This document shows positions 10,535-16,966 of a stretch of 42,979 nucleotides of DNA, piece by piece. Under the pieces are notes generated by a model, which worked only from the letters and a program-made list of their open reading frames with translations, did no database searches and was not told the DNA's origin. Source of the stretch: Escherichia coli (GTDB lineage Bacteria > Pseudomonadota > Gammaproteobacteria > Enterobacterales > Enterobacteriaceae); NCBI RefSeq assembly GCF_003334815.1, contig NZ_QOWO01000032.1, one strand, 5' to 3'. A program made the position numbers and the translations under genes. Positions within the stretch are counted from its first letter, which is position 1. Every line of letters starts with the position of its first letter.

Positions 10535-13168
10535 TCAGGCAAGCCGGTAACTGAACGTCCGTGACTGGCCGGGTAAAAAAGGCCCCGATAGATTTGAACC
10601 TTGATTTTCCTCGGTGGTAATGTGTTCATCCATCATCGTTTCTGAGCAAGAAATCACCTCGCGACTGAAAGCAACAGTCGCATCACAGGTTGCTGATTCA
10701 GCCGGATTAAACAGCCGTAAAATCACTTCTTGTCGGTCTTCAGCTTTCTTAAGTGCGCTTATCAGGCATCCCACTGGGGGCATTTTCAACAAACTATAAC
10801 TTTCCGGCACGTTGAATCCGGCTTTGTTGAGCTTCATCACATCCCATGGGATTTTGTTGTAACACTGTACTGGAGTCAGCCATGCTCGCGCCTGCTGAGC
10901 TACACCAGCGGCGGTTGGCGTACCGGTATAACTCAATAAACTTAGGCGACAAGAAAGCAGACCACGTAGTTGTGAGTCCGGGACTGGCATTTTAATTCCC
11001 GAAGGCCGCCCAGGCCTTAAAAGCAGATCTTCTTTGCCCAGTAAGCCCACGCCACGCAGCAACGTAATGGCAAAGGTTTTCTTCTCTTCACCGATGACTT
11101 CAAATTCACGTAACCCTTCGCTAAAGACAGCCATGCCGTTACGCCCTTCCTGTAAGGCAACATAGTTGAGCATATTCCATACCGGAACCGGCGCTTCTTT
11201 CCAGCCTTCTTGCTGCCAGTTGTTCATTGCACTGTCGTTCACGGGGCGCGTTAGCGAACCAAACTGCGTATCTGCCAGAACACTGTCGGTGTTAAAAGGT
11301 GTAGGGACCAGGACACGAAGGCGATGATCGTCAGCCTGGTTATCAAGATTGATATCCACATCAATACGCCTGCTGTTATGACTAAGAGTGACAACCAACA
11401 CCACCCCTACTCTGCCAGTGGATTGCCGGGCGCTGCGTTCTGACAAATTGAGCGGCACTGCCATGTCATAGCGGATAACAGCCCTGCTCTGCCAGGCTTC
11501 ATGAATAATATCGCATTGCGGTTTCGCGTTCGCTGCGGTAATTACCCACTCTTCTTTTGCGGGTGAATAGTCATATTCATCACCATCATCAGAGCTTTCT
11601 TCAATTTGCAATACCCGGTCATAGCGCACACCGCTGTCTTTATCTACCAGTTGCAGAGAACCATCCTCATTGAGCGCAATTTGCCAGAAAGCATTTTCCA
11701 GTATCCCTTCAGCGTCACTTTTTGCCGCAATTACGTTGCCAGGCTGATTCGCTTCGATATAAAGCGTGCGATAGCCCATAGAAGGGACAATCTGGTTGAT
11801 CTGTATATCAAACTCCATAAAGGGATCGTAATTACCGTAATGAACTATTTGCCGATCGATTAGGCCTGGATCGATCTCACGGGCATGGCGAATAAAATAC
11901 GGTACAGGCTGACCGCGATCGTCCCGCAAATTAAACTGGCTGGCGCGCAGCCGCACAGTGGTGTTGATAACTTCTTCACGCGGCCAGGGCATCAGGTTAA
12001 ACAGGACGAGTTTGTCGGCGTCGCTCTGCGGCATGTTGTCGGCAATTTTGCGCATGTAGAAACGAATCAGATTATCCGCCATGTCTTCAGCCAGTTCGAA
12101 GCGGGCGACGATTTCGCGATGAACTTTGTCACTACAGCAGCAGCCGATACTGTCGTGGGCATGATTTTTTAAGATCTCTTTCCACATTTTCTCCAGCAAG
12201 CCGTGGTGGTATTCAAAACCCAACGTCCAGGCCAGTGTTGCCAGCGGTTCCAGCAGATTAACAATCTTATTTTCAATACGCGCGTGGGCAATTTTGATAT
12301 CCATACGCGTAGAACCGATGGTGCGATGCACGCGCATATATTTGCCATCAATAAATTCCCCTTTCAGGGTTGCCAGATTATCTCGCTGCGCTTCGATCTT
12401 CTCAAATACCTCTTCAAAGCGGCTCATCACAAACTTACGTTGAGGGTAGATCTCACGTAGCTTATCCATCACTTCGAAGATATTTTGCTGCAATGGCATC
12501 TGGTCATGCCCATTCGGCAGCAAAATCTCTTTGGTTACAGACGCTTTTTCCAGCACGTCAAAATAACTGTCGAGGCGTTTACGTAATCCGTTTTCGTCGG
12601 CAGGTAAGTACTTACCGATGGCGTAGCCCAGCGGCAGCACCTGCGCCGTCACTTCGCTACCGTCACTGCTTTGCCACAAAAACTCGGTTTTATCAGTACC
12701 GTGGCGCTCCGAACATCCGCGCCAGAACATGGTGCGGGTAATGCCAAATCCATTGTAGATATGCGGCAGTTGCCCGGACATGCCAAAGGAATCTGGTAAA
12801 TAACCTATTTTCATCGGCTCGCCAAACGCGAGGCAGTCACGCATTCCGTACATCAGATTACGGACGATGGATTCCGCAGAAACAATCGTGGTATCGGTCT
12901 GGGTATACCAGGGGCCGATAATCAACTTGCCGGCTTCTACCTGTTTCTTCACACGGTCTTTGTTTTCCGGTTTCACCGCGAAATAATCTTCGAGGATCGC
13001 CGTTTGCCCGTCGAGTACGTAATATTTGTATTCGTTGTCCTGTTCCAGTCGGCACAGGATCTCTTCCATATTATTGACCAGCAGAATACGTGACTCTTCG
13101 GTGGTGAAATACCACTCTCGATCCCAGTGCATATGCGGGGTGATGTGAACGCGAGATACTGCTTTCAT
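10535..13168 (-). CDS. mngB: Alpha-mannosidase (2-O-alpha-mannosyl-D-glycerate hydrolase), GH38 family
   Basis: 877 aa; matches MngB/YbgG in length and N-terminal sequence ([22 protein letters not shown]...). Confidence 0.93.
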
Positions 13169-13185: not shown

Positions 13186-15162
13186 TTATGGCATTACGCC
13201 ATCAGTCAGATAGTTGCCATGCTTAACCGCGTGACGCCGCCACATCAGGAGAATTGCAGTCGAGATTGCAGCCCCCACCAATGCCGCGCCAAACCAGCCA
13301 ATTGCCGCCATAACACCGCCCGCGCCATTATCATGAAGTAAAAAGAGCGAGAAAATGCCGGCACCGGGTGTCGAAAGGCCGATATTCATCGCACCGACAA
13401 TAGCGCCCGTTACCATAGAGCCCAGCACAAACGAACCAATAACCCGCAGCGGATCTTCAATCGCCATCGGGATCGCCCCTTCGGTAATACCTGCCAGCCC
13501 TAACAGCCAGGTGGATTTCCCGGTCTCAATTTCAAACTCTTTAAACAGGCGCGGTGCGAGCATCGTGGAAGCGGTTACGGTAAATGCCGAAACCATTTTG
13601 ACGGAGGCGAAAATGGCATACGGGCCGTAAACGCCGTTCGCCATTGCGCCCAGGCAGAATGCATAAGCGGCTTTATTCACTGGCCCTCCAAGGTCAAAGG
13701 AACACATAAAACCGAGAATGGCACCCAGCAACAGCGCGTTACTTCCTGACAGACCGTTCAGCCAGGCGGTAAGCGAGTTATTGATCCAGGCGACAGGTTC
13801 CCCCACCACAAACAGCATCAGACTGCCCGCTCCCAACGTACCGAGCACCGGGTAGAGATAAAAAGTCAGGAATCCATTGAATTTACTGCTAAGACGCAAG
13901 TGATTTTTCACCCAGCGCATCAAGTAACCGGCTATCAATCCGCCAACGACCGCGCCGAGAAACCCGGAGCCGATCATGTTGGCGGCAAGTCCAGCCGCAA
14001 AGCCTGGCGCTAACGCCGGTTTATCTGCCAGAGAATAGGCGGTATAGGCCGCGAGCACCGGTACCATCAAAATTCCGAGCAGCCCGCCGCCCAGCTTGCG
14101 GTACATCCACAGCCAGGAGTTTTCTTCATTAAACAGATCTTGTAGCCCGAAGATTTGCGACAGTAATACCGCGACCGCCAGCACCGTGCCCCCCGCGACA
14201 ATCAACGGTACGGCAAAAGAGATTCCGCTCAACAGTGCCTGTTTCAGCTCCGTTTTGACACTTTTCACCGGTTGCGTATCTTGCTGTACGGTACGCGTCT
14301 CATCGCTACGCTTGAGGGTAAGCGCTTGTTGGATCAACGCTTCTGCATGGCGAATCGGCTCGGCAACAGGCACTGAAAGCGCGGGAATGCCATTAAAACG
14401 CTCACTCTCCTTGATGGCGACTTCAGCCGCAAAAATACAGGCGGTTGCACTATTGAGTTGATCCGCCGTTAAACGCCCTTCAATGCCGTTAGCGCCTTGT
14501 TTTTCAACGTAAACATTTACGCCGAGTTTGCGTCCGGCTTTTTCCAGATATTCCGCAGCCATATAGGTGTGAGCAATACCCGCCGGACAGGCCGTTACGC
14601 AGACGATAGTTGGCGCGTTGGAAAAAGAGGCAGAAGGTTGCGTGCCTCCCTTGTCATCCAGCGCCGAGAGCAACTCATCAGGCGTCGTCGCCGACTGTAT
14701 ACGCGCCCGAATCTCATCATCCGCAAGGCGCGTGGTCAGCGCTGTCAGCAGTTGCATATGCGTAGTACCCGCTTCATTGGGGGGAATCGCCAGCAGCACC
14801 ACTAAATCAACTGCTTCCGGGCCATCAACGCCTTCCCACTGAAGCGGCTCGCTGAGTGTGGCGACCGCAAACGCCGCTTCTTTTACCGCAGCAGTTTTGC
14901 CATGCGGCACAGCCAACCCTTCACCTAAGGCGGTCGGGCCAAGGCTTTCACGGCGATACACTTCTTCCAGAAATTGCTCAGTACTGGAAATTTTCCCCAG
15001 AGCAGCAAGACGTTGAGTCAACGCGTGGATGGCCTCTTCACGGCTGGTAAAGCGCGCATTCAGACACAACGCATCGCGGTGGGTCAGAGTCGTCAGATTC
15101 ATCATGATCCTCACTTGATCGTTTTTATAGTCGCGCCAGTGTGCCCGATAAAACAATACCAT
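13186..15162 (-). CDS. mngA: PTS system 2-O-alpha-mannosyl-D-glycerate-specific EIIABC component
   Basis: 658-aa ORF with N-terminal EIIA-like and EIIB-like domains and a C-terminal polytopic EIIC domain. An alternative start at 15105 (MMNLTT...) has a better Shine-Dalgarno, so the start is uncertain. Confidence 0.88.
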
Positions 15163-15270
15163 TATGTGATCAATTTCACTTGATTGAAATTATTTGTATT
15201 GTATTTGTATTATTTACAGGATGAATTTATCGGGCATAATGGTTAAATTCGTATTAATGAGATACTAAAA
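15163..15270. promoter_or_regulatory. mngR / mngAB divergent control region with candidate MngR operators
   Basis: Inverted repeat aatttca-N6-tgaaatt (15172..15191) followed by direct repeats atttgtattgtatttgtatta; GntR/HutC-type operator-like. Confidence 0.5.
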
Positions 15271-15993
15271 ATGGGACACAAGCCCTTATACCGGCAGATT
15301 GCCGATCGCATTCGTGAACAAATTGCGCGTGGCGAGCTTAAACCTGGCGATGCGTTACCCACTGAATCAGCGCTACAAACAGAGTTTGGCGTCAGCCGGG
15401 TTACGGTGCGTCAGGCTTTGCGCCAGCTAGTCGAGCAGCAGATCCTCGAAAGCATTCAGGGCAGCGGGACTTACGTCAAAGAAGAGCGGGTCAATTACGA
15501 TATTTTTCAGTTAACCAGTTTTGATGAAAAACTGTCGGACCGTCACGTCGATACACACAGTGAAGTTCTGATATTCGAAGTGATTCCGGCTGACGATTTT
15601 CTTCAGCAACAGCTACAAATCACCCCGCAGGATCGTGTGTGGCATGTGAAGCGCGTGCGCTATCGCAAGCAAAAGCCAATGGCGCTGGAAGAAACCTGGA
15701 TGCCGCTTGCGTTGTTCCCGGATCTCACCTGGCAGGTCATGGAAAATTCGAAATATCACTTTATCGAAGAAGTGAAGAAAATGGTTATCGATCGTAGCGA
15801 ACAGGAAATCATTCCTCTGATGCCAACCGAAGAGATGAGCCGTCTGCTTAATATCAGCCAGACAAAGCCGATTCTTGAAAAAGTATCGCGTGGATATTTA
15901 GTTGATGGTCGGGTGTTTGAATATAGCCGCAACGCTTTTAATACCGATGACTATAAATTTACCCTGATAGCGCAGCGAAAATCATCGCGATAA
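15271..15993 (+). CDS. mngR: GntR/HutC-family transcriptional repressor MngR (FarR)
   Basis: 240 aa; N-terminal winged-HTH (…FGVSRVTVRQALRQL…) and C-terminal UTRA-like effector domain. Confidence 0.93.
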   Translation: MGHKPLYRQIADRIREQIARGELKPGDALPTESALQTEFGVSRVTVRQALRQLVEQQILESIQGSGTYVKEERVNYDIFQLTSFDEKLSDRHVDTHSEVLIFEVIPADDFLQQQLQITPQDRVWHVKRVRYRKQKPMALEETWMPLALFPDLTWQVMENSKYHFIEEVKKMVIDRSEQEIIPLMPTEEMSRLLNISQTKPILEKVSRGYLVDGRVFEYSRNAFNTDDYKFTLIAQRKSSR

Positions 15994-15995
15994 GC

Positions 15996-16021
15996 ACAAA
16001 AAAGGCCATCATACGATGGCC
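15996..16021 (-). terminator. Intrinsic terminator of the suc operon / SdhX
   Basis: Hairpin ggccatc-atac-gatggcc (16004..16021); on the minus strand followed by a run of about 8 U. Confidence 0.6.
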
Positions 16022-16096
16022 AACCATGTCGAAACCGACAGCCCTTCGCCATTCCTGTAGAGGGAAGCGGCGAGGGCTATTTCTTATTACAGATAT
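15996..16096 (-). ncRNA. sdhX: Probable 3'-UTR-derived sRNA SdhX (RybD)
   Basis: About 100 nt between the sucD stop and the terminator, GC-rich (…cccttcgccattcctgtagagggaagcggcgagggc…). Assigned by position and literature memory; exact ends not determined. Confidence 0.5.
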
Positions 16097-16966
16097 TTAT
16101 TTCAGAACAGTTTTCAGTGCTTCACCGATATCCGCCAGGCTGCGAACGGTTTTCACGCCTGCGGCTTCCAGAGCAGCGAATTTCTCATCCGCAGTCCCTT
16201 TCCCACCGGCAATGATGGCACCCGCGTGGCCCATACGTTTGCCTTTCGGCGCAGTCACACCAGCGATGTAACCCACAACTGGCTTGGTAACGTGCTCTTT
16301 GATGTACGCAGCTGCTTCTTCTTCAGCGCTACCGCCGATCTCACCGATCATCACGATCGCTTCGGTCTGCGGATCTTTTTCGAACATTTCGAGAATGTCG
16401 ATAAAGTTAGAGCCCGGGATCGGGTCACCGCCGATACCGACACAGGTCGACTGACCGAAACCGTAATCCGTGGTCTGTTTAACCGCTTCATAGGTCAGTG
16501 TACCGGAACGGGAAACGATACCCACTTTACCCGGTTTGTGAATGTGACCAGGCTGGATACCGATTTTGCATTCACCCGGAGTGATAACGCCTGGGCAGTT
16601 CGGGCCGATCATACGAACGCCTGCTTCATCCAGCTTCACTTTCACGGTCAGCATATCCAGCGTCGGGATGCCTTCAGTGATGGTGATAATCAGTTTGATG
16701 CCTGCGTCGATGGCTTCCAGAATGGAGTCTTTGCAGAACGGTGCTGGTACGTAGATAACAGAAGCGGTAGCGCCAGTGGCAGCAACGGCTTCACGCACGG
16801 TGTTGAACACCGGCAGGCCGAGGTGGGTGGTGCCGCCTTTACCTGGGGTTACGCCGCCAACCATTTTAGTGCCGTATGCAATGGCCTGTTCTGAGTGGAA
16901 AGTCCCCTGGCTACCGGTAAAGCCCTGGCAGATAACCTTGGTGTTTTTATCGATTAAAATGGACAT
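16097..16966 (-). CDS. sucD: Succinyl-CoA synthetase alpha subunit
   Basis: 289 aa starting [45 protein letters not shown]; CoA-binding and catalytic His-loop region. Confidence 0.97.

Follow-up and report, generated by a model that had tools for sequence, protein, structure and literature searches.

A direct-repeat MngR operator and a predicted CRP-dependent mngA promoter in the divergent mngR-mngA control region of Escherichia coli

In published descriptions MngR, also known as FarR, is the repressor of mngA and mngB only, and its likely inducer is phosphorylated mannosylglycerate. Most regulators of the HutC family bind palindromes, and FarR is cited as an exception in this subfamily, since it binds direct repeats of TGTATTAWTT (Suvorova et al., 2015, PMC4494728, citing Quail et al., 1994). 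According to the same paper, two other GntR-family winged-helix regulators recognize tandem (T/G)GTAT(T/A) boxes and likewise use no palindrome: the repeats are GGTATA for NanR and TGGTATT for NagQ. NanR is a member of the FadR subfamily, unlike MngR. In the spacer between mngR and mngA, a SELEX peak of the RNA polymerase holoenzyme and an H-NS mark have been recorded (Shimada et al., 2014), and overproduction of SlyA is published as raising mngAB 3.4-fold. The region considered here is the very locus of the E. coli FarR/MngR operator, with the same sequence (Quail, Dempsey & Guest 1994; Sampaio et al., 2004). Boxes 2 and 3 described below do not differ from that operator, while boxes 1 and 4 and a CRP-like site are additional predictions.

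The window is the whole stretch of E. coli DNA that was analyzed, 42,979 nucleotides of contig NZ_QOWO01000032.1 (assembly GCF_003334815.1). From 13186 to 15993 it has no mismatch to E. coli K-12 MG1655 (NC_000913.3), so that mngA to mngR are identical, and the gene order around the control region is that of the K-12 mngR-mngAB locus, with sucD, mngR, and the divergent mngA-mngB pair. The NCBIfam equivalog models NF007293 (MngA) and NF007292 (MngR-type GntR regulator) score far above their cut-offs, and MngR is made of a GntR wHTH domain and a UTRA/HutC-type C-terminal domain. The initial annotation's reading of this stretch as the mngR/mngA divergent control region is thus borne out by both the annotations and the NCBIfam models. 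It is the shared and already characterized repressor-controlled divergent promoter region of mngR and mngAB.

Of 5426 complete E. coli genomes, 3868 contain the 401 bases around the control region, and the mng locus is found in just that number. Two main alleles of the control region occur in the species, the K-12 type (3289 genomes) and a second type (547 genomes) which has no ATG at 15162, no inverted repeat, and no TTGAAA hexamer. Strain 504239 (L001) shares the control region of the window at 100% identity, and its mngA (1188-3103) carries a frameshift and is annotated as a pseudogene, which suggests decay of the mng locus in some lineages. On the far side of mngR, the small RNA sdhX (MG1655 765050-765150) corresponds to window 15996-16096 on the minus strand, at the 3' end of the suc operon; it lies between the sucD and mngR stop codons, convergent with mngR, and an Rfam scan at E<=1 does not report it. 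The scan of 14800-16400 yields no known RNA element. An RNA-based mechanism was rejected, there being no Rfam family and no significant fold in the predicted mngA 5' UTR (z = 0.1).

A search with MngR recovers 38 loci in other Enterobacterales, including Citrobacter, Enterobacter, Kluyvera, Leclercia, Atlantibacter, Serratia, and Edwardsiella, and mngA lies divergently upstream in all of them. After addition of the divergent E. coli allele (L002), the intergenic regions were aligned (alignment A1, 40 sequences), and conservation was scored per position in window coordinates. Because the unconstrained stretches have fully diverged, conserved blocks are readily visible. These blocks (a to h) are collected in Table 1 along with the other features.

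Table 1. Annotated and predicted features of the mngR-mngA control region, in window coordinates.
Feature	Position	Strand	Description
Likely true mngA start codon	15100-15102	minus	second ATG of ATGATG; MNLTT..., 638 aa
Block a	15100-15112		CAT...ATCCTC; mngA start and Shine-Dalgarno
Predicted mngA 5' UTR	15103-15131	minus	29 nt; predicted start about A15131, MG1655 766015, placed from the -10 position
Shine-Dalgarno of mngA	15108-15112	minus	GAGGA; 5 nt before ATG 15102, 2 nt before ATG 15105
Predicted mngA -10	15138-15146	minus	GGG-CACACT in K-12; TGn-CACAAT in most relatives
Block b	15143-15138	minus	-10 hexamer; CACACT in K-12, mostly CACAAT elsewhere
Box 1, MngR-like, inverted	15150-15164	minus	TAATGGTATTGTTTT; core GGTATT 15160-15155, about -29 to -24 of the predicted mngA promoter
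Block c	15155-15159		AATAC; minus-strand reading is the core of (T/G)GTATT(G/A)TTT
Block d	15165-15179		TGTGATCAnTTTCAC; in 38 of 40 loci
CRP-like site	15165-15180		TGTGATCAATTTCACT; centre 15172.5, at -41.5 of the predicted mngA start
Inverted repeat	arms 15172-15178 and 15185-15191		AATTTCA-N6-TGAAATT; perfect, 7-nt arms
Block e	15181-15190		spacer; not conserved
Alternative promoter-like sequence	15184-15213	+	TTGAAA-18-TATTAT; specific to the K-12 allele; -35 is the right arm of the inverted repeat
Primary MngR operator, boxes 2 and 3	15191-15216	+	TGTATT cores 15195-15200 and 15206-15211
Block f			two TTTGTATT boxes; spacing invariant at 11 bp; 40 of 40 loci
Predicted mngR promoter	15213-15240	+	-35 TTTACA 15213-15218, 16-bp spacer, -10 CATAAT 15235-15240; predicted start about 15247, MG1655 765899
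Block g	15213-15218 and 15235-15240		mngR promoter, TTTACA, 16 bp, CATAAT
Box 4, MngR-like	15246-15260	+	AATTCGTATTAATGA; core CGTATT 15250-15255, about +4 to +9 of the mngR promoter
Block h	15250-15256		(G/C)GTATTA; kept in most species
mngR (farR)	15271-15993	+	GntR/HutC-family repressor, 240 aa; ATG 15271

The primary operator is formed by direct repeats. The sequence atttgtattgtatttgtatta at 15192-15212 comprises TATTTGTATT at 15191-15200 and again at 15202-15211, at an offset of 11 bp. No other place in the window shows this pattern. When the 168-bp region (31% G+C) was shuffled 2000 times with its dinucleotides preserved, direct repeats of 10 nt or longer spaced by 4-20 bp arose in 0.7% of cases, and the repeat with its 11-bp spacing is invariant in 40 of 40 enterobacterial loci. 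TGTATTATTT at 15206-15215 is an exact fit to TGTATTAWTT, and TGTATTGTAT at 15195-15204 fits it in the core. The arrangement that Sampaio and colleagues reportedly described in 2004, two 6-bp TGTATT repeats lying 5 bp apart, is presumably that of boxes 2 and 3. On the match to the published FarR motif and the invariance in 40 loci, the direct repeats are the known MngR operator, and their initial assignment to MngR is upheld. Owing to the 5-bp spacer between the cores, the K-12 allele has a third TGTATT at 15200-15205 that overlaps them; in other species and in the second E. coli allele, this spacer is TAATT or AAATT.

Boxes 2 and 3 abut or overlap the -35 hexamer of the predicted mngR promoter. 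Most of the 40 sequences keep both mngR hexamers, which the four most distant loci (L005, L030, L032, and L033) have lost. The promoter scan picks up TTTACA-16-CATAAT and also TTGAAA-18-TATTAT. The latter sequence, picked from sequence as the predicted mngR promoter by Shimada et al. (2014), was also considered as the ancestral mngR promoter and was rejected, as its -35 is not conserved.

On the mngA side, a consensus promoter scan finds no match on the mngA strand, as expected for a promoter that has no -35. The predicted -10 hexamer is constrained: the A at position 2 and the T at position 6 occur in 40 of 40 sequences, and TGn stands ahead of it in 31 of 40. Upstream of this hexamer, TGTGATCAATTTCACT matches nine of the ten core bases of TGTGA-N6-TCACA. 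It provides the sole TGTGA-N6-TCAC match in the 43-kb window, where 0.27 would be expected by chance, so that the core match alone is weak evidence. What speaks for the site is its conservation and its geometry. GTGATCAnTTTC is found in 38 of 40 loci, and the offset from the centre of the CRP-like site to the -10 is 32 bp in all 40, while the -10 and the ATG stand anywhere from 36 to 68 bp apart. The class II position of -41.5 holds relative to the predicted -10, with the hexamer set at -12 to -7. From these features, we infer that the mngA promoter is a class II CRP-dependent promoter. The K-12 -10, CACACT with no TGn, is weak and falls below the TGn-CACAAT of most related genera; given this weaker element, expression of mngAB may be lower in E. 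coli than in related genera. A GATC site for Dam methylation lies inside the CRP-like site (15168-15171) and is invariant in 40 of 40 loci, as are adjacent spacer bases.

The alternative that survives best, which we nevertheless think unlikely, is that the TGTGATCAnTTTCAC block binds some other factor or extends the MngR operator, and that mngA has an ordinary repressor-controlled sigma-70 promoter. In its favor, the literature and supplements searched show no link between CRP and mngA, hrsA, or farR, and neither mngA nor mngR appears in the CRP genomic-SELEX paper and those of its supplements that were examined, or in the supplements examined for a paper on CRP feed-forward loops. The central bases TCA and TTT of the site are also more invariant than CRP alone usually requires, so another factor may share it. 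Lastly, GTGATCAC forms a HutC-type GT-N4-AC palindrome in some species. However, this palindrome needs a C at 15173, a position that is unconstrained (A, C, or T) next to a conserved TTTCAC, and it was rejected on that ground. The block contains no GTATT, its core is the one found in the lac CRP site, and its centre is placed exactly at -41.5 of a promoter without any -35. An FNR half-site in the TGTGATCA block was rejected as well, its right half being mismatched on direct reading. The class II CRP promoter thus remains the preferred reading for mngA.

Two further MngR-like boxes flank the primary operator, each less than 50 bp away from it. A weight matrix was built from boxes 2 and 3 only, in 40 species, and the window was scanned with it. 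Among about 86,000 positions, box 4 ranks 5th and box 1 ranks 6th. In K-12, their cores deviate from TGTATT, to CGTATT in box 4 and to GGTATT in box 1. The GTATT core of box 1 is invariant or nearly so, whereas the (G/C)GTATTA of box 4, kept in most species, is missing in some genera. Judging from these matches, MngR may occupy both boxes. The distance between boxes 1 and 2 varies by 2 bp among species, and that between boxes 3 and 4 by 2-10 bp. Because the spacings vary in this way, a rigid, phased four-box repressor assembly is not supported as a higher-order complex. Other high matrix matches are TATTTGTATTCGTTG at 13023-13037 (+), in the 5' part of mngB, and AAGTCGTATTAAATT at 31919-31933 (+), both of which may be due to chance.

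Box 1 also contains the ATG annotated as the mngA start in K-12 (15162-15160). The longest mngA ORF runs leftward from this codon (658 aa) and leaves 108 bp to mngR, as in the K-12 RefSeq. Further down, the minus strand from 15112 to 15100 reads GAGGATC-ATG-ATG, with ATG codons at 15105 and 15102. The methionine of MNLTT is encoded by ATG in 39 of 40 aligned sequences, the codon preceding ATG 15102 is not a methionine codon in 20 of 40, and GAGGA is at least 90% conserved across the 40 sequences. Upstream of ATG 15102, the frame meets a stop within a few codons in many species, or is not conserved. At 15162 itself, the second E. coli allele has AAT, most species have AAT or another non-start codon, and direct reading finds no Shine-Dalgarno ahead of the K-12 ATG. 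On the long ORF, the match to NF007293 runs over residues 20-658 and that to Pfam EIIA_2 begins at residue 30; the 19-20 extra N-terminal residues thus lie outside the family and domain models, and they vary even within E. coli. ATG 15162 therefore has no conserved codon, no ribosome-binding site, and no constrained extension to mark it as a genuine start. It falls at -31 of the predicted mngA promoter, and the first codons of the long ORF, ATG GTA TTG TTT, are box 1. Being upstream of the predicted transcription start and inside this box, it would not serve as a start codon. PGAP-annotated E. coli genomes begin mngA at 15102 (638 aa) and leave 15140-15200 unannotated.

The start of mngA is thus most likely ATG 15102, 60 bases further in than in the K-12 annotation, as codon conservation and the Shine-Dalgarno indicate. 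In that case the intergenic region spans about 168 bp (15103-15270), and not 108. The initial annotation was right to doubt the start and to look downstream for a better one. The in-frame MMNLTT start at 15105 to which it pointed was one codon off, the conserved start being 15102. Its 108-bp region agrees with the K-12 annotation but depends on a start that is probably wrong, and the functional region is about 168 bp: the stretch down to 15103 that was left as coding holds the predicted -10, the inverted MngR-like box, and half of the CRP-like site.

It is very improbable that both mngA starts are used, with a long transcript from a promoter inside the mngR promoter region giving a 658-aa isoform in K-12-type strains. 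The ORF is indeed open from 15162 in the K-12 allele, and a predicted mngA promoter, TTAATA-19-GATAAA, has been placed further upstream (Shimada et al., 2014). But this promoter is a sequence-only prediction in an unconserved region, and the long form runs into the same obstacles as above, a start without a Shine-Dalgarno and 20 extra residues which no family or domain model covers and which vary within E. coli. We therefore keep a single start at 15102.

The inverted repeat also attracted attention as an operator in the initial annotation, all of whose quoted sequences are found at their positions. Perfect inverted repeats whose arms are 7 nt or longer and whose loop does not exceed 12 nt turn up in 22% of the shuffles. 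The repeat is present only in the K-12-identical locus and absent in the other 39 of 40, the second E. coli allele included. Its right arm lies within the least conserved stretch, and the left arm owes its conservation solely to the overlap with block d, the CRP-like site. It does not contain the palindromic HutC-type core GT-N4-AC (GTMTAKAC). For these reasons, the operator claim falls, and the inverted repeat is judged to be fortuitous, a chance feature overlapping a probable CRP site. A palindromic operator acting with the direct repeats in a 108-bp region, with mngA perhaps starting at ATG 15162, can accordingly be given next to no credence: the perfection of the 7-nt arms, the preference of most HutC-family regulators for palindromes, and the 658-aa ORF of the K-12 RefSeq are outweighed by the frequency of such repeats in shuffles, their absence from 39 loci and from the allele of 547 genomes, the unconserved right arm, the missing GT..AC core, the unconserved codon with no Shine-Dalgarno, and the citation of FarR as a direct-repeat exception in PMC4494728.

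A model of the region can be proposed by combining these elements. MngR would bind the two head-to-tail TATTTGTATT boxes (15191-15211); as these touch the -35 of TTTACA-16-CATAAT, this binding would give autoregulation of mngR. For mngAB, which is transcribed leftward, the promoter would lack a -35 and consist of the -10 at 15143-15138 together with the CRP-like site at -41.5. With this class II geometry, expression of mngAB would need both cAMP-CRP and the release of MngR. A repressor bound at box 1, which falls between the CRP-like site and the -10, would keep RNA polymerase out, and box 4 lies just downstream of the predicted mngR start. Translation of mngA would begin at ATG 15102, behind GAGGA. 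CRP binding, the transcription start sites, the binding of MngR to boxes 1 and 4, and the mechanism of repression we infer from sequence. We hold it to be highly probable that the model is correct as a whole, that is, a region of about 168 bp with a direct-repeat operator, a class II CRP promoter for mngA, auxiliary boxes, and a start at 15102. Moderately likely, in our view, is the more specific proposal that a class II CRP promoter of mngA has gone undescribed, that the K-12 start is an inverted MngR box, that some 60 bp of "coding" sequence are promoter and operator, and that MngR represses mngA there, with the direct repeats serving mainly for mngR autoregulation. What is new here is modest: a class II CRP site as a prediction, two auxiliary MngR-like boxes, and the position of the K-12 start inside a promoter/operator.

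The practical consequence concerns the K-12 reference annotation of mngA (b0731), which should be corrected to 638 aa from 658, with an intergenic region of 168 bp in place of 108. Reporter fusions, knockouts, and expression constructs designed from the K-12 mngA coordinates would carry along parts of the promoter and operator or disrupt them. A model for combined catabolite and substrate-specific control is also offered by the predicted CRP site and the extra boxes. Otherwise, this is textbook repressor-plus-CRP control of a sugar PTS operon.

Where NanR and NagQ sites are tandem boxes, the mngR-mngA region has two boxes exactly 11 bp apart, plus one inverted and one distal box. The palindromic HutC-type operators (GT-N-TA-N-AC), such as the NagR/DasR dre sites, belong to the regulator subfamily that MngR shares, but the region contains no conserved GTMTAKAC palindrome. 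At class II CRP promoters, such as galP1 and melR, a CRP site at -41.5 replaces the -35. Like these, mngA has TGTGA-N6-TCAC 41.5 bp upstream of its predicted start and no -35, and in most species an extended -10 (TGn). Unlike these, it has an unusually weak -10 in K-12, and a repressor box between the predicted CRP site and the -10.
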